A stretch of DNA of 37,531 nucleotides from Promethearchaeota archaeon (GCA_048939765.1 JBHLPF010000036.1:1-37531), one strand, 5' to 3'. Positions 9,972-37,531 are shown, counted from the first letter of the stretch. Numbers and translations: made by a program. The notes: generated by a model not told the origin, from the letters alone.

Positions 9972-10538
9972 CTAGTTGCCATACTTCTGAGTCAGCTCTC
10001 TGATCTTGAAGTCTAGCTGTTCAATTCCAATTCCAGTCTTTGCCGAAATCAGTTGCAGTCCGGTTCCAGCATCCTCTGCGAACTGAATCATCTCTTTGTG
10101 GATATTGTCAAATGTACCATCCAAAAGGTCGATTTTGTTGCCCACAAGAATGAATCTGGAGCCATCGTCTCTGCTGAAATCAAATCCAGCATTCTCCTCT
10201 ATCAAGGGCACCCAGTAACTGATTAGATTGTCCAAGCTCTGTAAATGGGTCACGTCAAAGAAGAGGAGCCCTATTCTGCACCCTCGTATCATGCTCTTAA
10301 GCTGCTCAATGAATCGCATTTGACCCCCAAAATCCCACATTGAAAGGACGATACTACCATCTCCATTGGGAGATTCAATCCTCTTGGTTGCAAAGCTAAC
10401 CCCAATCGTTGTCTGAAGTGTTCTGGGATCAGGAAATGTGCCGTTTGTCCAACGTGATGTAAAGGACGTCTTACCGCATTCAGAGTCCCCTAGAATCACC
10501 GATTTGATTATTGGCACGAAAGTCCCATCCCTAGACAT
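9972..10538 (-). CDS. Rab-like small GTPase (Ras superfamily)
   Basis: G1 GDSECGKTS, G2 TTIGVSF, G3 WDFGGQ, G4 NKID, G5 SAK; no C-terminal Cys. Confidence 0.93.
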   Translation of the reverse strand: MSRDGTFVPIIKSVILGDSECGKTSFTSRWTNGTFPDPRTLQTTIGVSFATKRIESPNGDGSIVLSMWDFGGQMRFIEQLKSMIRGCRIGLLFFDVTHLQSLDNLISYWVPLIEENAGFDFSRDDGSRFILVGNKIDLLDGTFDNIHKEMIQFAEDAGTGLQLISAKTGIGIEQLDFKIRELTQKYGN

Positions 10539-28268: not shown

Positions 28269-30872
28269 TCATTTAATCTGTCGGACCAACACTTGAATCA
28301 TAAGTTCATCCCCTAGGATTATTCGTGTCATGTTTAGCTCTGAATCGAATGTAGATCCATCGCATCTCTTGAATTGCCATCTTGCAGTTTCTGTACTCCC
28401 GGCCAAGATGGAGTCAATTATCTTGAGGACTCTTTGTTTTGATGATGACTTGTCAGGCTGACGACGTGGAGATAGCTGCCATAGCGCCTTTTCGATGACT
28501 TCACTCCTTTTGCATCCAAGCATTCTTAGGAACGCTCTATTGCAGTCAGTCGCGGTAGATTCTTTCAGCAGGAGAAGAGCATCACTTGACATTTTGATGA
28601 GGGACAAGTATCTATCGTCGCTTTCTTTAAGGGCACCCTCGAGCATTTTCTGCTTCGTGATATCTAGGAGAAGAACCTGTAGAGCTGGCTTACCCTCGTA
28701 TATTATCCTGGAAGGAAAGCTACGATACCAGACGACCGATCCATCGTGATGTACGTATTCATCCTCATAGCCACTATGTGGTGCCACTTGCTTCCCATCC
28801 AGAATATCGAGCATTGTTTGCAGTGCTCCCTCAACATGACGAGGGTGCAGCGCATCTGAAACCCATTTGGGACCCATAGCGATGAGGTCCTCTGTAGTAT
28901 ACCCTGTGAGTTCAGTTGTTGACTGATTGGCGTACACTATAGTTAGAGGATTTCCACGCATGATAATAATTGGGAAAGCACTGGATTCGACCAAGGTTCG
29001 AAATCTCTCTTCACTTTCCCTAAGCATCATCTCAGATTTCTTCCGCTCGGTTATGTCTTGAATTTGCGCCAAGTAGACAAATCCTGTTCCGTCTTCTGCC
29101 GCTTGCAAGGCTGAACCAATGATGCTCAAATGAATAGGATCCGTTTTGGTTGAGTTGAATCCTGCCCCTCTAATGTCATATTCAACTTCGAATGTAATCA
29201 CTTCGCCTTCTTGGACGTCACTAAGAACCCATTCAGGCAAATTCGTGTCTTTTTCAAGCAGGTATTCCTCGAACCCCGTTTCACGGCTAATACCAAGGAT
29301 ATCTGCGGCTGCTTGGTTTATCTGAATTATCCTGCCTTCCGAGTCAAAGAGAAGGATACCATAGAGCGAAACCTCGAAGATTCCTCTGAACCTTTTCTCG
29401 CTTTCACGTAGGGCTGCTTCTCCTTCAATCTGCTCAGTGATGTCAACCTCTAGTGTTTGCATCGCATTACGACCATCATGTTCCACAACATTTACGTATG
29501 ACTCAACCCATCTGACGTCACCATTAGGCCGAATATAGCGAAACCTATGACTGGGAAGCTTCTTGACTCCTGACTTGACCGCATCATTCCTCCTAATGAG
29601 CTCCTCCCGATCTTCAGGATAAATCATGTTCCAGGTTTCATCGGGACTCATCTTAAGCAACTCGCCCATGGAACGTCCGACAGTGCGAGCATAGGCAGGA
29701 TTGACGAATACGAAGCGGCCATCAACCAGTATCGAGATACCTTGCAGGGATTCGTTGACCAATCTTCTATATCGTTCTTCGCTCCGATCAAGTGCTTCAA
29801 GTACTAGCTTTTCATGGGTCACATCCAATAAGGTACCTGCCGAACGGACTGGATTCCCATCATCATCTCTATCAACGACTCGCCCTCGGTCAAGTACCCA
29901 GACATAATCGCCAGATTTTGTCATCATCCGATGCTCAGATGAATACATAGGCGTCTTATTCTCAAGGTGGTCATCCCACACAGCAAGGACTAACTCAAGG
30001 TCATCGGGATGAATAAGAGCTTCCCAGTTTTCAGCATATTCATTCAGCTCCTGCAACGAATATCCCAATAGCTTTGCATAACGTTCGCTGAACGTCATTC
30101 TGCCTGTCTTATGATGCCAATCCCAAGGAGCAAGGTCAGCTCCTTTGAGAGCGAGGTCCAATCTTTCCTGGCTCTGGCGCAAAGCTTCCAACGTTGATTT
30201 TTGCTCCGTGATGTCTCGAACAACCGAAACTATGCTTTCGCCATCATCGTGAAGGCTCATTGTTACCGAAAACCAGTATGTTGCTTCATTGATAGTGAGT
30301 TGATACTCAAAGGCATCCGCTCGTCCGGTTTCCTTCACTTCCTGTGCCATCTCTACCGCTTTCTCCGTAACATCAGGAGGAAGCACGTCTCGCTCCGCTA
30401 GGTCTGGAGATATCTCGAAAGTTGTTGGAACATAGAATCGGGCGGTGGTTCGGAAGTACATTCCTCTAACCCGTTTCGATGTGCCCTTGTCATCCTCCTT
30501 TGGTGGTGGATATTGGTCTACCAAGCCTTGGTCACGTAGCTTTCTGAGGTGATAGTAGCAGTTGTAGTTTGATATCTCGAGCTTGGGCCTATTCTCCTTG
30601 ATAATGGCAAGGATTTCGTGGACACTCAACCAGTACCTTGTTGATGGCTTCCGAATTGTCACTTCCTCAGAAATGAGTGTACCGTCCTCAAGAGCCCTTT
30701 CTGTCCGCTTGCTTTCCGTTACGTAATCCTCATACCCCTGATCTAGCGCTCTTAGAATCTCGAGTCTAAGAGGATGATAGAGAGATTCCTTCTGATCTGC
30801 TGTTTCGAGGACCATGAAATCTTGTCGTGTTGTTTCAGGCAACTCTATTCGGACTGAATTTTCAGGGACCAT
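28269..30872 (-). CDS. wHTH regulator fused to an array of PAS domains (one half plus five full), no kinase domain
   Basis: N-terminal HPLRLEILRAL...YYHLRKLRDQGLV; repeated SEERY/F...D(I/V)TE.K PAS/PAC units running to the C-terminus. Confidence 0.92.
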   Translation of the reverse strand: MVPENSVRIELPETTRQDFMVLETADQKESLYHPLRLEILRALDQGYEDYVTESKRTERALEDGTLISEEVTIRKPSTRYWLSVHEILAIIKENRPKLEISNYNCYYHLRKLRDQGLVDQYPPPKEDDKGTSKRVRGMYFRTTARFYVPTTFEISPDLAERDVLPPDVTEKAVEMAQEVKETGRADAFEYQLTINEATYWFSVTMSLHDDGESIVSVVRDITEQKSTLEALRQSQERLDLALKGADLAPWDWHHKTGRMTFSERYAKLLGYSLQELNEYAENWEALIHPDDLELVLAVWDDHLENKTPMYSSEHRMMTKSGDYVWVLDRGRVVDRDDDGNPVRSAGTLLDVTHEKLVLEALDRSEERYRRLVNESLQGISILVDGRFVFVNPAYARTVGRSMGELLKMSPDETWNMIYPEDREELIRRNDAVKSGVKKLPSHRFRYIRPNGDVRWVESYVNVVEHDGRNAMQTLEVDITEQIEGEAALRESEKRFRGIFEVSLYGILLFDSEGRIIQINQAAADILGISRETGFEEYLLEKDTNLPEWVLSDVQEGEVITFEVEYDIRGAGFNSTKTDPIHLSIIGSALQAAEDGTGFVYLAQIQDITERKKSEMMLRESEERFRTLVESSAFPIIIMRGNPLTIVYANQSTTELTGYTTEDLIAMGPKWVSDALHPRHVEGALQTMLDILDGKQVAPHSGYEDEYVHHDGSVVWYRSFPSRIIYEGKPALQVLLLDITKQKMLEGALKESDDRYLSLIKMSSDALLLLKESTATDCNRAFLRMLGCKRSEVIEKALWQLSPRRQPDKSSSKQRVLKIIDSILAGSTETARWQFKRCDGSTFDSELNMTRIILGDELMIQVLVRQIK

Positions 30873-30998
30873 ATTATCGACATCTCTCTGTGACCGCTTT
30901 TCTCTCAGGGATGGGTGTTTTCAAAGCAGCGGAACTCCGCATCTTCCGCGTCAGAATGCTCCCTACAGTAATTTGGCAAACTAGAATAAAAATCTTTG

Positions 30999-31082
30999 TT
31001 ATTGTAATTGACTATATAATGAAGATGTACTAATGCAGAATATTTAAATAGTAATAATTCTTATTGCAATTCGTTACAATAA
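30999..31082. promoter_or_regulatory. AT-rich divergent promoter with TTATTGYAA operator-like sites
   Basis: TTATTGCAA-TTCG-TTACAATAA (31061-31082), extra half-site TTATTGTAA (30999) and palindromic TATTTAAATA (31041-31050). Confidence 0.55.
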
Positions 31083-31112
31083 TACCTAGCATCAAGTGCG
31101 TGGGGTAGTGAA

Positions 31113-31961
31113 GTGACAAGCGTGGGTACTAATGGAAACGACCTAGATCACCTCGATCAAGAAGGGAACAATCCAAAGGTCCTGCTCTTTATTGAAACCG
31201 ATGAACAGAAGCAATCACTTCACCATCCATTCCGGAAGAAAATCCTGAAAGCCCTGAGTGCAGGCATAGAAGACTACGAGACTCAGATAACCACAGAAAT
31301 AAAGACTCTCAAAGACGGCACGGGACTCAAGCATTCACTCGAACTCAAGCGTCCAATCCAGAGATACTGGTTGACGGTATCGGAGCTTGTGGATGAACTC
31401 TGTTATAGATATCCCAAGCTCGAGATCACAAGCTATCAATGCTATTACCATCTTCAGAAATTGGAAGAACAAGGACTTGTGGAACAGGATCCGGCCCCTG
31501 AGTTCAACGATGACGGGAAGAAGAGAAGAATTAGGGGCAGGCGCTTCAGAGCTGCTGCCCGCTTCTTCATTGCCTACAATCCAGGATTCTCTCCAGGAAA
31601 TCCGATCCCTTGTGTTGAGTTTCTTCAGAACAATTGGAATCTCACTCCTACCAAGAAAGACTGTGAAGATCTGACTGACTTGATCTTTCAGCAAGATATG
31701 GCTCTTTTCAAGGCTTTAGAGCATCTCGCGGCTCATCTGAATGAGCCAGATATGGACTCAGTTACGTTGTCTGTGTTGCTCGAACGGCTTGCCCATGTCT
31801 TTCTCTCCGATAATCATGAATTCATTGAAAGATATCGAAAGGCGAAAGCAATCCTCATTCGCGCCGGGGGGAGATTTCTGGAATCAGACACCAACGACAT
31901 GGATGTCACACAGACCAGTGATGCCAAGGGAACAGGAACCAGAGGTTGTGTCAATGAATAG
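31113..31961 (+). CDS. ArsR-like wHTH regulator with beta-hairpin insertion, paralog of the 28269-30872 N-terminus
   Basis: HPFRKKILKAL...RYWLTVSEL...PKLEITSYQCYYHLQKLEEQGLV...RG..FR..ARF. Confidence 0.87.
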   Translation: MTSVGTNGNDLDHLDQEGNNPKVLLFIETDEQKQSLHHPFRKKILKALSAGIEDYETQITTEIKTLKDGTGLKHSLELKRPIQRYWLTVSELVDELCYRYPKLEITSYQCYYHLQKLEEQGLVEQDPAPEFNDDGKKRRIRGRRFRAAARFFIAYNPGFSPGNPIPCVEFLQNNWNLTPTKKDCEDLTDLIFQQDMALFKALEHLAAHLNEPDMDSVTLSVLLERLAHVFLSDNHEFIERYRKAKAILIRAGGRFLESDTNDMDVTQTSDAKGTGTRGCVNE

Positions 31962-32499
31962 CGTATTGAGAAGGCATCCGGTATTCAAGACCGTTATGAT
32001 AGGTGAAGGTGGTGTGGGTAAGACCAGTATCACTGTACGATACACTGAGAATCGTTTCGATGAGAACATGATGATAACAATTGGAGCAAACTTCGTTTCT
32101 AAGAAAGTCGAAATAAACGGGTCACCTCTCACCTTAATGATTTGGGATCTTGGCGGACAGCCTCGTTTTCGCGAGGTTGTTGTAGATTACTTCAGAGGAT
32201 CAAGATACGCAATCGCAGTCTATGATGCAACTCGAGTATACTCATTGGAAAGGCTACCGGATTGGATTGACCGACTGAGAGAATCGGCTCCAAATTGTGA
32301 ACTCCTGTTTGTTGGAAATAAGACGGATGCCAGAGCAAACGGGAGTGGCGTTCCGTTCGAGGAAGGAATCGCATTTGCTGAGAAGTACGATGCGCTTTGC
32401 ATCGAGGTCTCAGCTAAAACCGGAGCGGGAATCGATGACATGTTTGAGTTGGTAGCGCAGAAACTCATTCAGAAGTATCCTGAGATGTTGGAGGTGTAA
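31954..32499 (+). CDS. Rab-like small GTPase
   Basis: GEGGVGKTS, TIGANF, WDLGGQ.RF, YFRG, NKTD and SAK. ATG at 31954 overlaps the upstream stop; the ORF-track extension to 31741 is spurious. Confidence 0.95.
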   Translation: MNSVLRRHPVFKTVMIGEGGVGKTSITVRYTENRFDENMMITIGANFVSKKVEINGSPLTLMIWDLGGQPRFREVVVDYFRGSRYAIAVYDATRVYSLERLPDWIDRLRESAPNCELLFVGNKTDARANGSGVPFEEGIAFAEKYDALCIEVSAKTGAGIDDMFELVAQKLIQKYPEMLEV

Positions 32500-32511
32500 A
32501 CAACGACGAAG

Positions 32512-32763
32512 ATGGTTTTGAGCCCTTTTGCCTGCCCTGAATGCAAAGATGGTTCCTTGGTCAAGGTGGAAGTGGAAGAGGATGAAATTCGCAAAGCTCC
32601 TCGTCTCCCAGCTATGGTGATGACAAAATGTAGCAAGAACCACACACTTGTAGTCTTCGTTGATGGAAATCTCCAGGTCCGAGATGTTGAATCCACACTA
32701 AGCGGTCATAGGGTAAGCAAAGATGCTCTCGACAAAACGGGAGATTGGTTTGTTTCATTGTAA
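32512..32763 (+). CDS. Small CxxC...CxxxH zinc-ribbon protein
   Basis: FACPEC...CSKNHTLVVFVDGNLQVRDVE; paralog of 10647-10910. Confidence 0.82.
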   Translation: MVLSPFACPECKDGSLVKVEVEEDEIRKAPRLPAMVMTKCSKNHTLVVFVDGNLQVRDVESTLSGHRVSKDALDKTGDWFVSL

Positions 32764-32811
32764 CAGAATAATCATGATAACACAGTCAATTATCATTCGA
32801 GGCAAAGCAAA

Positions 32812-33255
32812 ATGTACGGAATAATGCTGGTGAACCACGCGGGGGAAACAGTTGCTTCGGCGGGATGGGACCATATAGATGGTGACATCACCCTGTTTGG
32901 CGGATTTGTTTCAGCTGTGCAGATGTTCATCAAGAAAATCTCAGGCGGCACGAATGTTGAAGAACTACGTTTTGGAAACATGAAGCTGCTGATTGGTAGC
33001 TCATATGACTACCATATTGTTACACTTCATGAAGCCAATGAAAAGAATGCATTGTCAGAAAACCGTGAAGTAACCGAACTTGTGAGGGAGAACGCTGGAA
33101 TTCTCAATGACGGGGTTCTCAAATTGATTCAAGCAATGATCTCCAATGACGATGCCGCATCTGCAGTCGTTGGTGAGAGTGTGAAGGATTGGACTCAGTC
33201 ACAAGTCGAACGTGCAAAGAAATCTGCGAGTGATTGGGGCAAGACTGTGTTATAG
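32812..33255 (+). CDS. Longin-like domain protein
   Basis: Beta-beta (GIMLVN.AG..V), helix LFGGFVSAVQMF.KKI, then VEELRFG.MKLLI and further strands, an Asgard longin-type pattern. Confidence 0.75.
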   Translation: MYGIMLVNHAGETVASAGWDHIDGDITLFGGFVSAVQMFIKKISGGTNVEELRFGNMKLLIGSSYDYHIVTLHEANEKNALSENREVTELVRENAGILNDGVLKLIQAMISNDDAASAVVGESVKDWTQSQVERAKKSASDWGKTVL

Positions 33256-33258
33256 GAT

Positions 33259-34641
33259 GTGTTAGTTATGGGAGTATATGAAACTGCTCAACTCTATCTT
33301 GGTTTAGCAACGCTAGTGGCTGCTCTGATCATTATCCAGTATAGCAAGAAGAAATCTGCAGTGCTGGACGCTGATGCTGGAAGAGCAATACGGCCTCTAT
33401 ATGTGGTTGCGATTGGTTTTGTTGCCTTTGCCATCGGAGCCTTGGCAACGTATATTGAAGAGATACTCGGACAAGCAATCCTTGTGGACACCTATTACGC
33501 ATACTATGCATCTGCAGCTGTGGAGGTGGTTTTGCTGGGCATTGCTGCAGCAATGATACTGGACGCTAAGCGCTTTTACTCAGTTCCATCCATGACTGTA
33601 ATTGCAACAGTTGTCCTATTCTATCTAGCTGAAGCCTATCCCCAGACATCGGACTTTCTGCTGCTCATAGGAGTGCTATTCCCTTCGTTAATTCTTCTCA
33701 GCATCGGAGGACTATTCGTATGGCTCACTCGGGAAACTCAACGTGGCACAAGCGCAGCTTTGGCATTTGGGTTACTTACTCAGATTGCTGGGTTACCAGT
33801 GCTATATTTTGATCTCTTGGTTGGACCCGAGGCCTTGATTGCTTTGTTCATTGTTCTGATGGGTCCGGCCATGATTGCCTTCGCATTCCTGCGTCCCAAT
33901 CAGAAAATTACCTTCGAGCTCGCGGGGTATGGTGCAAGCTTTGCAGCGCCCGCACTAGTTCTCATCAGTGTTCAGACCGCAGGTCTTGCTATGGACACAA
34001 TGCTACTTGCTATCGCGTCGATGGGTGGTGTTGCCATCCTTTTGGCTTTAGGAACTGCTGCATATCTTTATGGCAGATGGTCAGAAACTCGACAGATTCC
34101 AACAATTCTGTTCATGGTAGCATTTCTCCTATTCGGACTTGGTCAAATGTCAGGAATGCTTGATAATCTCGGGATGTTCCCTGATCCAGACGGTATCTAT
34201 ATCGAGTTCCTTCTCACAGGCTATGCATTGACATTCTTGTCAGTTGGAGCTATCTATGCGGCCGGTGGAAGGAGTACTGGACTTGTTCCTATGGTGGCTT
34301 TCGTGCCAATTTCTGTAATGATAATACAAGCATACCCCATCAGTATCGGTGATCTCTTCTTAGATCTGATTATAATCATGGTGCCAACAATTGTTCTCAT
34401 GATACTGCCATCCATCGTGTTTTTTGGCGTCTGGAAGCGAATGCGATCCAATCATGTAGCAGGAAGTCTACGACCCTTGGGAGTAGCTATTGCGATTATC
34501 CTGTTCTTCGTCATTCGTCTGCCTCCCATGGTGCTGGGATTTGGCGGACTGGATTACGGATATGGCTGGGTCCTTCTAAGTTACCTTATGTTCTGGTCAG
34601 CACTGACTGGACGGTTGGACAGAGTGACTATTGCCGTCTGA
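33259..34641 (+). CDS. Polytopic membrane protein (~15 TM; two apparent 7-TM repeats)
   Basis: About 15 hydrophobic helices, no soluble domain; internal repeat VP...AYP / P..L / LP. Confidence 0.8.
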   Translation: MLVMGVYETAQLYLGLATLVAALIIIQYSKKKSAVLDADAGRAIRPLYVVAIGFVAFAIGALATYIEEILGQAILVDTYYAYYASAAVEVVLLGIAAAMILDAKRFYSVPSMTVIATVVLFYLAEAYPQTSDFLLLIGVLFPSLILLSIGGLFVWLTRETQRGTSAALAFGLLTQIAGLPVLYFDLLVGPEALIALFIVLMGPAMIAFAFLRPNQKITFELAGYGASFAAPALVLISVQTAGLAMDTMLLAIASMGGVAILLALGTAAYLYGRWSETRQIPTILFMVAFLLFGLGQMSGMLDNLGMFPDPDGIYIEFLLTGYALTFLSVGAIYAAGGRSTGLVPMVAFVPISVMIIQAYPISIGDLFLDLIIIMVPTIVLMILPSIVFFGVWKRMRSNHVAGSLRPLGVAIAIILFFVIRLPPMVLGFGGLDYGYGWVLLSYLMFWSALTGRLDRVTIAV

Positions 34642-34718
34642 TGAAATCAGAGGAGTTGAGATGTTGAGTTCGATTCGAATCGAGGAGGATTCCTTTCTCA
34701 GCTCCTTTCTATCGAAAA

Positions 34719-35216
34719 TTGATGAAGGGAACTATATTGATTATGGTGGGAGAAGCGGATCAAACAATCAAGAATGAAGTTTCAAGATCAAGAATTAAGC
34801 GCGACGATGAACCAGTTCATCTTATTCTTGCTGCGGCAAAGGCTGGTTTTAGTTTGTTTGAATTGAAGTTTCAGCCGTATATAAGAGGAGATGATTCCAT
34901 AATGGCAGGATTTCTGACAGCGCTGACAAGCATCAGCAATGCCTTATTCTCGCAACCTCTTGAGAGCGCCAGGATCGGAGAGTATAATCTCCAGATTTGC
35001 ATCCGACTTCCGTTTCTTTTCTGCTACGTATCCAAGGGAGAGCAATATCCTGCCAATCAGAAATTAAACGACTTCATCGAGAAATTCCATGCTGCCACTC
35101 ATCTATGGAATTCTTTGACAAATACAATTGAAACAGGAGCCGTGGACAGAACGGCCCTCTCATCTATAGAGAACATGGCTTCACAGGCTCTCCTCTCCTT
35201 TAGAGAAGCCGGGTAG
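34719..35216 (+). CDS. Longin-like domain protein
   Basis: AG.SLF...F....D..IMAGFLTAL.S.S...F...LES..IGEY.L.....FLFCYV.KG..Y.A.QKL..F. Confidence 0.72.
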   Translation: MMKGTILIMVGEADQTIKNEVSRSRIKRDDEPVHLILAAAKAGFSLFELKFQPYIRGDDSIMAGFLTALTSISNALFSQPLESARIGEYNLQICIRLPFLFCYVSKGEQYPANQKLNDFIEKFHAATHLWNSLTNTIETGAVDRTALSSIENMASQALLSFREAG

Positions 35217-35238
35217 AATGATTGGAGCAAAATGAAAA

Positions 35239-36762
35239 ATGACAACTTCAACTGGAAAGGCGCGTCACAGCCTAATCATCCCGCTGTTGTTTGTTGTCTT
35301 CCTAATAATCCAGCTATATGCATTGGCATCAGGTCTTGCTTGGATTGAAGTAAATCCAATTCAGTTCAATTTCTGGCTTTCAGTCCTAGTTGCGATAGTA
35401 GCCACAGTTGCGGGAATTGTCGCCACATATTCATTCGTCCAATACAATCAAGAACGTTGCTTCAGAGATTTCATCTTCTCATTGATTGGCATCAATATTG
35501 TATTGCTGGCCTTCCTTTTCCTCCTCACTCATCCTGCTGCATCATGGTCCGCCTTCTCTGACCGACAAAGAAACATGACAATAGTCGCGGCAATAGGGTA
35601 TTTGGTTACACCTGGAATGCTTGCGAGTTCGATTGTAAATGACAATTACGTAACTCGGAAGACGAAGTGTATTGCGCTATTGCTAGGAACAGTCATTCTG
35701 CCGCTCATTTCGGTTTGGATGTTCCTTGCCCCTGAACCCATATTCAGATTGACAGGTCCTGGAATAGGCCTAGGCGTATTGACACCTCATGCGTGGTTTC
35801 TTGCGATAATCATTGGGATTACATCCTTGGTTGCTTTCCTTCGATACTTACAAGAGTGGCTGAGGGGACATGATCGGATTATTCTCTCTGCGGCTCTGGC
35901 TCTAGTACACTGGATACTTGCATTCCTGATTTATCTGGTGATTGAAAGCCCGTTACAGGTAGCGGAACTGTTGTGGTTTAGTAGCATCGCGGCCGGATTC
36001 ATTCTTCTAGCCATTGCTATGGTTGTGACTTCAATCATTGAACCTCATCGGGCACTTGAAATGATAATCGAAGAACGCACATCTCAGCTGAAAGAATCAC
36101 AAGAGGAAACCGAGTTCTATCTGAAGCTCTGGACACATAAAATCGGAAATCTCTTGCAAGGAATCTCGACCTATCTGGAATTGATTGGCTATCAAGCCGA
36201 AGAAGTTTCGGGCTTAGTTAACCTACGAAAGCCAGCAGCGGATCTTGTGAAAGAGTCCATTCTCGTGAATCGACAAATTGGGAGGCTGATTAGGATCAAG
36301 GAAAAGACTTCCTCTGCAACTTGGCCAGTTAGCTTGATGCACGCTTTGATGAAATCAAAGGATGAAGTAAGAGAAATACTGGATGAGAATCTAGTATCTG
36401 TAAGGATACCCAGAATCGAAGAATCGCTTCAAGTAGTTGCGGATGACTTGATAGACATCGTTTTCATTAATCTGATTACAAAATGCTTCAACAATGGCCA
36501 TCATGTTCAGCCCAAAATAGCAATGAGTGTAACTGTGAACCAGAATCATGTTCATGTGAAATTCAAGCCATGTCCGATTGAATCCGACATCAAAATCAGG
36601 GATTATCTAAAAAGGAAACCTTCGTTGAAAGAAAGCATTGCGGACCTTGATTTCTTCATGTCATGGACAATCATGGAGAGATATGGCGGCGCTATCAACT
36701 ATGAGGAGAATCCTCATACAAAGGAGAATGTTCTTGTTTTGACTTTCCAAAGAGCGTTCTAG
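35239..36762 (+). CDS. Membrane sensor histidine kinase-like protein (~8 TM) with degenerate HATPase domain
   Basis: TM bundle, EERT..L coiled coil, H-box THKIGNLLQGI, ADDLIDIVFINLI and ERYGG.I; N, G1 and G2 boxes degenerate. Confidence 0.85.
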   Translation: MTTSTGKARHSLIIPLLFVVFLIIQLYALASGLAWIEVNPIQFNFWLSVLVAIVATVAGIVATYSFVQYNQERCFRDFIFSLIGINIVLLAFLFLLTHPAASWSAFSDRQRNMTIVAAIGYLVTPGMLASSIVNDNYVTRKTKCIALLLGTVILPLISVWMFLAPEPIFRLTGPGIGLGVLTPHAWFLAIIIGITSLVAFLRYLQEWLRGHDRIILSAALALVHWILAFLIYLVIESPLQVAELLWFSSIAAGFILLAIAMVVTSIIEPHRALEMIIEERTSQLKESQEETEFYLKLWTHKIGNLLQGISTYLELIGYQAEEVSGLVNLRKPAADLVKESILVNRQIGRLIRIKEKTSSATWPVSLMHALMKSKDEVREILDENLVSVRIPRIEESLQVVADDLIDIVFINLITKCFNNGHHVQPKIAMSVTVNQNHVHVKFKPCPIESDIKIRDYLKRKPSLKESIADLDFFMSWTIMERYGGAINYEENPHTKENVLVLTFQRAF

Positions 36763-36988
36763 GTATTGGATAAGGCTCCTGCATCGCTCTTGCGATAGCT
36801 AGCAGTCATTGATTCGTTGAAAGCCAGAATCCAATTGTGATGTTTGAGGATTGATACCAGGCGCAGTCCCTGAGGGCAGTCTGGGAATCAAGAAGTGCAG
36901 AGCTTTCAAGACAACCAAAAGCATGCTTGGTCAGGGGAATGTACAAATACGCTGATGTCGGAATATGACCTGATTGAGGTGAGAGTGT

Positions 36989-37531
36989 TTGCCATACGAG
37001 AGGACTGAGTCATGTGAAGCAGTCTTCAGAGAATGCGTTAGTCTGTTTGAAAATCAAGAATTCCAAGAGGCGTTGACATGTTACAATAGGTACACAACGA
37101 TATGCCCGGCCGACCCTATGGGTTGGAATAACCATGGTGCGTGCCTTATTGCTCTTGGAAGATATCTTGAGGCAGTTCATAGCTGTAACATGGCCTTGGA
37201 ACTAGACCCGAACCACAAGTATGCAAGCAACAACAAGGGTCAGGCTCTGGAAGCAGTTGGCAAACTCAGAGAGGCGGCAGAATGCTACATGCAGGCTTGC
37301 CGAGTTGATCCTGAATATGCCCAGCCATGGTTCAATCTTGCCAATGCGCTACGGAAGATGGAGAAGTTTGACGATGCCATCAAGTACTATAGGAAAGTGG
37401 CGAAGCTCGAGCCAGACTATCCACAGATATGGAACAACATTGGTATCTGCTATCATATGATGGAAGACTATGACAACGCCTTGGTCTACTACAGAAAGGC
37501 ATCTGACTATAGTCCCAGAGATCCATTCCCG
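36989..37531 (+). CDS. Tetratricopeptide repeat protein, 3'-truncated by window edge (missing from the ORF track)
   Basis: GAGGTGA RBS and TTG start; frame open to the end. WNNHGACLIALGRYLEA, NNKGQALEAVGKLREA, WFNLANALRKMEKFDDA and WNNIGICYHMMEDYDNA repeats. Confidence 0.88.
   Translation, partial: MPYERTESCEAVFRECVSLFENQEFQEALTCYNRYTTICPADPMGWNNHGACLIALGRYLEAVHSCNMALELDPNHKYASNNKGQALEAVGKLREAAECYMQACRVDPEYAQPWFNLANALRKMEKFDDAIKYYRKVAKLEPDYPQIWNNIGICYHMMEDYDNALVYYRKASDYSPRDPFP

Follow-up and report, generated by a model that had tools for sequence, protein, structure and literature searches.

Asgard archaea encode dozens of eukaryote-like small GTPases together with longin and roadblock proteins, and to our knowledge the regulator or membrane partner that belongs to a given one of these GTPases is hardly ever known. 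According to the published view, most Asgard GTPase and longin/roadblock genes lie outside conserved neighbourhoods. The locus described here, at positions 28269-37531 of a 37,531-nt stretch of Promethearchaeota DNA (GCA_048939765.1, JBHLPF010000036.1:1-37531; the whole stretch is called the window below), raises the question of whether a run of tightly spaced genes around a Rab-like small GTPase is a single signalling system or more than one. The window is contig C48 of a 3.37-Mb genome that is 88.5% complete. Its Asgard origin, proposed in an initial annotation made from the sequence alone, is borne out by the Thorarchaeota source names of close homologues and by an actin gene on contig C46 of the same genome. 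The run comprises seven co-oriented genes, which encode in order a winged helix-turn-helix (wHTH) protein, the GTPase, a small zinc protein (Zn-ribbon), a longin-type protein (longin 1), a membrane protein with two seven-transmembrane (7TM) bundles, a second longin-type protein (longin 2) and a membrane histidine pseudokinase. A tetratricopeptide repeat (TPR) gene follows, and a gene combining PAS and wHTH domains lies divergently upstream (Table 1). The open reading frames and their spacing proved to be exactly as annotated, with an 8-nt overlap followed by gaps of 12, 48, 3, 77 and 22 nt.

In a tblastn comparison with all window proteins as queries, the genes for the GTPase, the Zn-ribbon, longin 1 and the 7TM protein were found together at 14 of 14 loci. 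These core genes are present in three paralogous copies in the genome itself (on contigs C48, C13 and C54) and at 12 loci of its relatives, and in the C54 copy their order is Zn-ribbon, longin, 7TM protein and GTPase. The Zn-ribbon, longin 1 and 7TM families have exactly three members each in the genome, every one inside a module, and the zinc protein was always found as part of a module among the loci compared. Across 400 scanned Asgard genomes, the 7TM family is present in 43 of the 85 genomes of the host's family, in 3 of 3 genomes of the family to which the closed Atabeyarchaeia genomes belong, and in 3 of 19 genomes of a third family; weak, half-length matches were seen elsewhere. In both outer families all four core genes are adjacent and arranged in the C54-type order. 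Given the three copies in one genome and the many relatives, this arrangement is far beyond chance, and the conserved unit consists of four genes encoding the GTPase, the Zn-ribbon, longin 1 and the double-7TM protein. It is true that the genome has about 24 small GTPases and many longin/roadblock genes, so that some adjacency by chance is expected, and that the literature places most such genes outside conserved neighbourhoods. However, that the clustering is meaningless, a set of unrelated neighbours in a gene-dense genome, is highly improbable in view of the two gene orders, the three paralogous copies, the three Asgard families and the confinement of three gene families to modules. This explanation is contradicted for the core and remains only for the extension formed by longin 2, the pseudokinase and the TPR protein.

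Longin 2 and the pseudokinase follow the 7TM gene at none of the 13 other loci checked among relatives and own-genome paralogues. Among these are the nearest orthologous loci (L015, L017 and L019) and the two paralogous copies of the same genome. The gene-order conservation anticipated in the initial annotation thus stands for the four core genes and fails for longin 2 and the kinase-like gene, and the seven genes are not one conserved system. Since the 7TM gene lacks these two genes downstream elsewhere, and since both of their families have neighbourhoods of their own, as described below, we favour the reading that the locus consists of two adjoining modules, the first of them a membrane-anchored small-GTPase switch; we put the probability of this reading at about 0.55.

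Reduced or distant versions of the core were also seen. The genome G011 carries a module remnant without the 7TM gene (L145, C15 9321-10317), in which a truncated longin abuts a GTPase fragment, and G023 carries another (L047, C28 6951-8285), with an intact GTPase and a longin that has no C-terminal tail. We considered whether a pseudokinase, a paralogue of which is encoded nearby, replaces the 7TM protein in G023; this idea was dropped because the longin tail is lost there as well and the G011 module is plainly truncated, so that a deletion remnant is the simpler explanation. Locus L062 (G205:C576, 806-3257), from a distant Asgard family, encodes a protein with a match to the C-terminal 7TM repeat alone, beside a small GTPase and a gene with a weak longin-2-like match, a set that could be a single-bundle relative of the module.

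The GTPase at the centre of the core has intact G1-G5 motifs and the catalytic Gln, with GEGGVGKT (GxGGVGKT in the family), T42, WDLGGQ, NKTD (NKxD) and SAK invariant in 11 module GTPases. Its match to the Pfam Ras family (2e-40, cut-off 21.6 bits) leaves those to Arf (5e-13) and Gtr1_RagA (5e-5) far behind, and its best 60 solved relatives are all Rab or Ypt proteins (E 6.5e-33 to 3e-29). From these sequence comparisons, Rab-like is a fair description of the protein, which appears nearer to Rab than to Arf, Rag or MglA, and the initial assignment as a Rab-like GTPase is upheld. A C-terminal Cys that could carry a lipid anchor by geranylgeranylation is absent in all 11 module GTPases, the window protein ending in KYPEMLEV.

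Longin 1 belongs to no curated longin or roadblock sequence family in Pfam or NCBIfam, and a profile of 38 sequences had no match among solved structures at the sequence level. Its 97 homologues are all unnamed and come from Thorarchaeota. The AlphaFold2 (AF2) model built from the 38-sequence alignment has a moderate mean predicted local distance difference test score (pLDDT) of 69.5 and shows strands at 3-8, 13-17, 51-54, 57-63 and 67-74 and helices at 26-43, 80-93 and 100-108. The modelled topology is thus beta-beta-alpha-beta-beta-beta-alpha-alpha followed by a long C-terminal helix, without the N-terminal helix of roadblock proteins. The top Foldseek matches are zeta-COP, sigma-adaptins, Mon1/Ccz1 and MglB at E of about 1e-4, and exhaustive structure alignment (VIA) gave Z 11.7 to a CPLANE longin domain (2.6 A, 106 residues), Z 10.8 to delta-COP, Z 10.6 to an MK-D1 roadblock protein and Z of about 10 to MglB; TRAPP subunits are also among the top structure matches. 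Alignments to longin targets use residues 1-114, and those to roadblock targets use residues 1-98 and skip the first 20-29 residues of the target. Judged from the model, longin 1 is a member of the longin/roadblock superfamily with predicted longin topology.

The zinc protein has no named relative in Pfam, NCBIfam or the Atlas, where the best score was 0.78 and its own model had a pLDDT of 0.49. The invariant residues C8, C11, C40 and H44 form a CCCH site in the family alignment (A3), which confirms the Zn-ribbon call. After a polar linker the protein ends in a conserved Trp tail (DWFVSL, with W79 invariant) that resembles the conserved tail of longin 1 (SDWGKTVL, with W142 invariant). For two longin 1 chains with the GTPase, complex prediction gave an interface score (ipSAE) of 0.49 (0.51, 0.49 and 0.45 in separate runs), compared with 0.00-0.01 for three controls; the runs share at least 69% of contacts, and the partner has a pLDDT of at least 77. 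The mark used for this score is passed by 58 of 80 solved complexes and by 2 of 110 mismatched pairs, and of those 80 complexes only 7 score 0.60 or less, as do both of the mismatches that pass. The prediction weakly suggests that longin 1 binds the GTPase, and the pass may mirror likeness rather than binding, because similar complexes have been solved (MglA-MglB, and Rab proteins with longin GEFs, that is, guanine nucleotide exchange factors).

The fourth core protein was modelled from 35 sequences with pLDDT 92.3 and a predicted TM-score (pTM) of 0.90. The model has 15 long helices and a short terminal one, in the order of seven helices, a linker helix, seven helices and a short C-terminal helix with a conserved TGRLDR motif. 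Because the N half (25-177) and the C half (267-419) are homologous to each other (hhalign 97.3%, E 1.7e-11), the earlier description as a tandem 7TM protein of about 15 helices, joined by a linker helix, is correct. The protein has no sequence homology to a known receptor family in Pfam or NCBIfam, and a profile search of 1.84 billion sequences returned 66 cluster representatives, all of the single 7TM family. Residues 244-456, which form the C-terminal repeat, can be superposed on G protein-coupled receptor (GPCR) bundles of class C and the adhesion type over about 200 residues (Z 14-15.6): the repeat scored Z 15.6 with a designed GPCR-like fold (3.4 A, 201 residues), 14.6 with GABA-B, and 14.0 with both GPR156 and ADGRL3. 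The N-terminus is placed outside and, on the inner side, helix 7 is succeeded by a short helix, as in GPCRs. The protein differs from GPCRs in having two bundles in one chain connected by the linker helix, no extracellular domain and no family match, and in that the partner encoded here is a monomeric Rab-like GTPase and not a heterotrimeric G protein.

The predicted inner loops of the 7TM protein contain 20 Lys or Arg residues and the outer loops none, and conservation decreases from the inner loops (2.41 bits) through the membrane cores (1.95) to the outer loops (1.18). Since the inner loops are both rich in Lys and Arg and conserved, the conserved surface is the cytoplasmic one. In the model, this conserved face fits better with a docking platform for cytoplasmic partners than with a sensor of external ligands, and sensing within the bundle or the membrane is possible. 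We also considered that the 15-helix protein is a transporter, flippase or membrane enzyme whose activity or placement is controlled by the GTPase, longin and zinc protein. Transporters often have an internal duplication with a linker helix, an extracellular domain is missing here, the outer loops are short and variable, and the weak Foldseek rows include MurJ, Wzx, MATE and LYCHOS. Those rows are not significant, however (E above 0.1, TM-score about 0.2), and the 50 best results of the exhaustive structure search are GPCR-type seven-helix bundles only. No transporter family in Pfam or NCBIfam matches the protein, and its conservation peaks in the cytoplasmic loops and not in the membrane core, where any substrate path would lie. 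On this balance a transporter or enzyme is quite unlikely.

The conserved operon is headed by a pair of regulators. The divergent gene encodes an N-terminal ArsR-like wHTH followed by five to six PAS domains (Pfam PAS_3 3e-49, PAS_9 7e-40, HTH_20 2.5e-7; TIGR00229 matches six stretches), and no kinase domain was found in it with Pfam or NCBIfam. Its wHTH domain is paralogous to that of the first gene in the operon, with 44% identity by tblastn. The divergent pair is kept at four orthologous loci (L015, L017, L018 and L019), where the wHTH gene precedes the GTPase gene, so the PAS/wHTH regulator pair proposed initially is present as described. Between the two genes lie a half-site TTATTGTAA, a TATA-like element TTTAAATA and, directly downstream of the latter, a palindrome TTATTGCAA-N4-TTACAATAA, which in its full form occurs only once in the 3.37-Mb genome. 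The layout of TATA-like element plus palindrome recurs in the orthologous intergenic regions of L015 and L017, and the palindrome of L019 differs. We infer from this arrangement that the wHTH proteins bind the palindrome as a candidate operator, and autoregulation with PAS-sensed input would be its natural reading. The C-terminal half of the operon wHTH protein (residues from about 160 to 282) is helical, has no family match and is conserved with the operon; it could sense the state of the GTPase module.

The genes beyond the 7TM gene have other affinities. A single close homologue of longin 2 (P0099) was found in 5.8 billion proteins, and a six-frame search located the longin 2 domain within open frames of 600-770 aa in other genera (E down to 5e-28). 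The 612-aa protein at L028 has N-terminal TPR repeats with the longin 2 domain at its C-terminus. By these sequence matches, longin 2 is the domain that Asgard TPR proteins have at their C-terminus, here in a free-standing copy. The longin 2 profile had no sequence match among solved structures, and the same was true of the kinase-like protein. Profile-profile comparison connects longin 2 with the longin 1 family (93.4%, E 2.5e-7, 71 columns), the Atabeyarchaeial orthologues of longin 1 match both profiles, and the Atlas lists a Roadblock/Fuz_longin cluster for longin 2 at 0.89. The initial call of two longins was right at the fold level, for longin 1 by its model and structure matches and for longin 2 by profile homology to longin 1. 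A longin 1/longin 2 heterodimer, on the other hand, cannot be the general mechanism of the module, as longin 2 is missing from the other module copies. We also tried to read the TPR gene of the window as the missing half of a TPR-longin fusion that the pseudokinase gene interrupts; this was dropped, as it has only generic TPR similarity to the fusions.

Full-length relatives of the kinase-like protein occur in seven genomes from the host's family. In an alignment of 11 family members (A6), H300 of the DHp helix (W-T-H-K-I-G-N-L-L-Q) is invariant, and the ATP-binding boxes of the window protein are lost, with K-C standing where the N box has N-A, KFKPCP where DxGxG (G1) would be, and no GxGLG (G2). 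Canonical boxes (NLxxN, DNGP/DKGP and GLGLGL) are kept only in three distant members, and the same three, not including the window protein, are those matched by Pfam HATPase_c. The retained His and the lost N, G1 and G2 boxes substantiate the earlier description as a pseudo-histidine kinase. NCBIfam MASE3_PAS_HK matches residues 44-292 far below its cut-off (E 1.6e-4), and Pfam MASE3 matches two of the 11 family members, with 2.8e-7 at best, and not the window member. The family alignment and these matches point to a pseudokinase that arose inside a MASE3-type kinase family.

Its paralogues have neighbourhoods of their own. At L053, a TPR-longin gene lies directly downstream of the pseudokinase paralogue. 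At L052 (G022:C58, 1834-5152), 2 nt separate a paralogue from the gene upstream of it, which encodes a true PAS histidine kinase (Pfam HATPase_c 1.5e-17); this suggests a kinase/pseudokinase pair. A second paralogue of the genome itself (L056, G000:C46 75000-94000) shares a syntenic neighbourhood with one in G014 (L051, G014:C255), containing an actin gene, a Ras-family GTPase gene (168-174 aa) about 2 kb away and a gene for a 380-aa Pro/Ala-rich zinc-ribbon protein. Apart from the G023 paralogue considered below, the remaining loci have no relevant neighbours.

Several observations weigh against the reading as two modules with a membrane-anchored switch. The interface score of longin 1 with the GTPase falls in the weak-support band of the tool; the GPCR likeness of the 7TM protein exists only at the level of the fold (5-12% identity, and Foldseek against the PDB gave no match below E 0.1, the best being 0.17); and its outer loops of 7-16 residues are variable and unlike a ligand-binding surface. 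One pseudokinase paralogue lies 1.4 kb from the Zn-ribbon, longin and GTPase set of G023 (L047), and two others lie within about 2.5 kb of other Ras-family GTPase genes, so the two modules may be functionally linked. No clear TATA box was found in the 77-nt and 22-nt gaps, and longin 2 and the pseudokinase may therefore be co-transcribed with the first module here. The junction between the 7TM gene and longin 2 was also recovered elsewhere. A contig of 3,028 nt, assembled from another sample (X3), covers 34003-37030 with two differences, and a 450-nt contig from a separate mangrove study (X7), where the population is a related one, bridges it at 34438-34887. As both contigs span it, the junction is no assembly artefact.

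Some of these points also favour the original interpretation, in which the seven co-oriented genes and the TPR gene form one receptor, longin-GEF and GTPase system, with a longin heterodimer and with pseudokinase input replacing a phosphorelay. The tight same-strand spacing without an evident promoter in the two gaps, the junction in contigs of another study, the true if distant homology of longin 2 to longin 1 and the occurrence of pseudokinase paralogues near small-GTPase genes at 4 of 11 loci (about three independent cases) all agree with it, and its layout recalls the actinobacterial conservon, with a kinase-like sensor, a roadblock protein and a small GTPase. We nevertheless regard it as unlikely: none of the other module copies examined has longin 2 or the pseudokinase downstream of its 7TM gene, longin 2 itself has a single close homologue, its wider family is a domain of TPR proteins, and no module gene lies within 9 kb of most paralogues of the pseudokinase. 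Of the original interpretation as a whole, the identities of the parts, the core gene order and the regulator pair hold, and the single seven-gene system and the general longin heterodimer do not.

Under the two-module reading, module 1 (30999-34641, with the divergent PAS-wHTH gene beside it) would be a self-regulated, conserved operon that encodes a membrane-anchored small-GTPase switch. The lipid-less Rab-like GTPase would be recruited to the conserved cytoplasmic face of the double-7TM protein, where a longin 1 dimer and the zinc protein could set its nucleotide state, either as a GEF or as a GTPase-activating protein (GAP). Longin 1 and the zinc protein probably both dock on one common site through their matching Trp tails. 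The operon wHTH protein and its PAS-bearing paralogue would bind the promoter palindrome, so that expression tracks PAS-sensed signals. Module 2 (34719 to the contig end) appears to be a neighbour specific to the lineage, in which a MASE3 pseudokinase and a TPR protein accompany a free-standing longin domain of the TPR type. Its parts recur elsewhere without module 1 and may feed the same or another small GTPase, and module 1 would not require it. A more speculative proposal, which we consider rather improbable, is that a MASE3 pseudokinase and a TPR-type longin provide a second membrane input to Rab-like GTPase switches of Thorarchaeota, and that here this input joins the double-7TM protein on one GTPase. 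If that were true, input from a GPCR-shaped sensor and from a decayed two-component sensor would converge on one small GTPase, and the locus would be an Asgard counterpart, built from eukaryote-type parts, of the kinase-roadblock-GTPase logic of conservons.

The actinobacterial conservon (CvnA-D), which combines a kinase, a roadblock protein, CvnC and an MglA-type GTPase (PMC4316618, PMC13343842), is by analogy the known system that appears closest in logic. Both are prokaryotic operons that combine a Ras-superfamily GTPase with a roadblock/longin protein, a polytopic membrane sensor and a small protein that has no assigned role; each occurs in several paralogous copies per genome, and here a membrane histidine-kinase-like protein adjoins. 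However, the module GTPase is of the Rab-like kind and has a DxxGQ G3 motif, including the G3 Asp, whereas that of the conservon is MglA-type; its partner shows longin topology in place of an MglB-type roadblock fold; and no protein of the locus has a Pfam match to the CvnC family (DUF742). In addition, the conserved membrane partner is the double-7TM protein here and a kinase (CvnA) in the conservon, the kinase-like gene of this locus is degenerate and has no counterpart in the other module copies, and the lineages are Asgard archaea and Actinomycetota, respectively. The locus is not a conservon because of its GTPase type, the topology of the partner, the missing CvnC and the non-conserved kinase.

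MglA-MglB and the archaeal and Asgard roadblock-GTPase pairs likewise have a GTPase gene beside a roadblock/longin gene, and the partner in Mgl-type pairs acts on the GTPase as a dimer (PMC4316618, PMC10933270). They differ from the module in that MglB has a roadblock N-terminal helix, whereas longin 1 begins with the first strand and has C-terminal helices, in that MglA is without the G3 Asp present in the module GTPase, and in that the Mgl system has neither a zinc protein nor a membrane partner. The eukaryotic longin regulators of Rab and Arf GTPases (Mon1-Ccz1, TRAPP, CPLANE, DENN and folliculin) also pair a longin-fold platform with a Rab-type GTPase; these are heterodimers or larger multi-domain assemblies, in contrast to the single 147-aa, Pfam-blank longin of the module. 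An Asgard operon with a LAMTOR1-like protein, a Rab-like GTPase and a DENN protein (bioRxiv 10.1101/2020.10.19.343400) is similar as a conserved operon that combines a Rab-like GTPase with roadblock-superfamily and GEF-type proteins. It has no zinc or 7TM protein, and the present locus has no DENN or LAMTOR1-like protein. In the Asgard literature that could be searched, where the ESCRT operon and the LAMTOR1, Rab and DENN operon are described, we found no paper that describes the four-gene module.

The module thus brings together four proteins that travel together across three Asgard families, namely a lipid-less Rab-like switch, a longin, a zinc protein and a GPCR-shaped double-7TM protein. 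It makes testable how a Rab-type GTPase was tied to the membrane and regulated before prenylation and multi-subunit GEFs. The orthologous set to which the window belongs adds a candidate promoter and operator and two paralogous regulators. What the window copy alone adds is the adjoining extension of pseudokinase, TPR-type longin and TPR protein, together with its separateness from the core, and this set may show how two-component and GTPase parts combined.

Table 1. Genes and control elements of the locus, with positions counted from the first nucleotide of the window.
Feature	Position	Strand	Evidence or remark
PAS-wHTH gene	28269-30872	-	Pfam PAS_3, PAS_9, HTH_20
Shared control region (half-site, TATA-like element, palindrome)	30999-31082	.	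Sequence layout, orthologous intergenic regions
Half-site TTATTGTAA	30999-31007		Control region
TATA-like element TTTAAATA	31044-31051		Control region
Palindrome TTATTGCAA-N4-TTACAATAA	31061-31082		Directly downstream of TATA-like element
wHTH gene, first in operon, 282 aa	31113-31961	+	Pfam HTH_20 5.9e-7; overlaps GTPase start by 8 nt
Rab-like small GTPase, 181 aa	31954-32499	+	Pfam Ras 2e-40
Zinc protein (Zn-ribbon), 83 aa	32512-32763	+	Invariant C8, C11, C40, H44
Longin 1, 147 aa	32812-33255	+	AF2 model, structure matches
Double-7TM membrane protein, 460 aa	33259-34641	+	AF2 model, internal duplication
Longin 2, 165 aa	34719-35216	+	Profile-profile match to longin 1 family
Putative MASE3-type membrane histidine pseudokinase, 507 aa	35239-36762	+	NCBIfam, family alignment
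TPR protein, cut by contig end	36989-37531	+	Pfam TPR_1 1.6e-39 and many other TPR models

Of the proteins encoded in the locus, Pfam names only the multi-PAS/HTH_20 protein, the HTH_20 protein, the Ras-family GTPase and the TPR protein. Pfam is blank for the zinc protein, longin 1, the 7TM protein, longin 2 and the kinase-like protein, and NCBIfam is blank or nearly so.

Outside the locus, the window encodes a second Ras-family small GTPase at 9972-10538 on the minus strand (188 aa, Pfam Ras 1.4e-23), which has 34% identity to the module GTPase and no adjoining module genes. A perfect 14-nt palindrome, TCGATTCGAATCGA, lies at 34670-34683, within the 77 nt that separate the 7TM gene from longin 2; a hairpin and a binding site are both possibilities for it. 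One mangrove contig has a 5-nt deletion at 34669, beside this palindrome.

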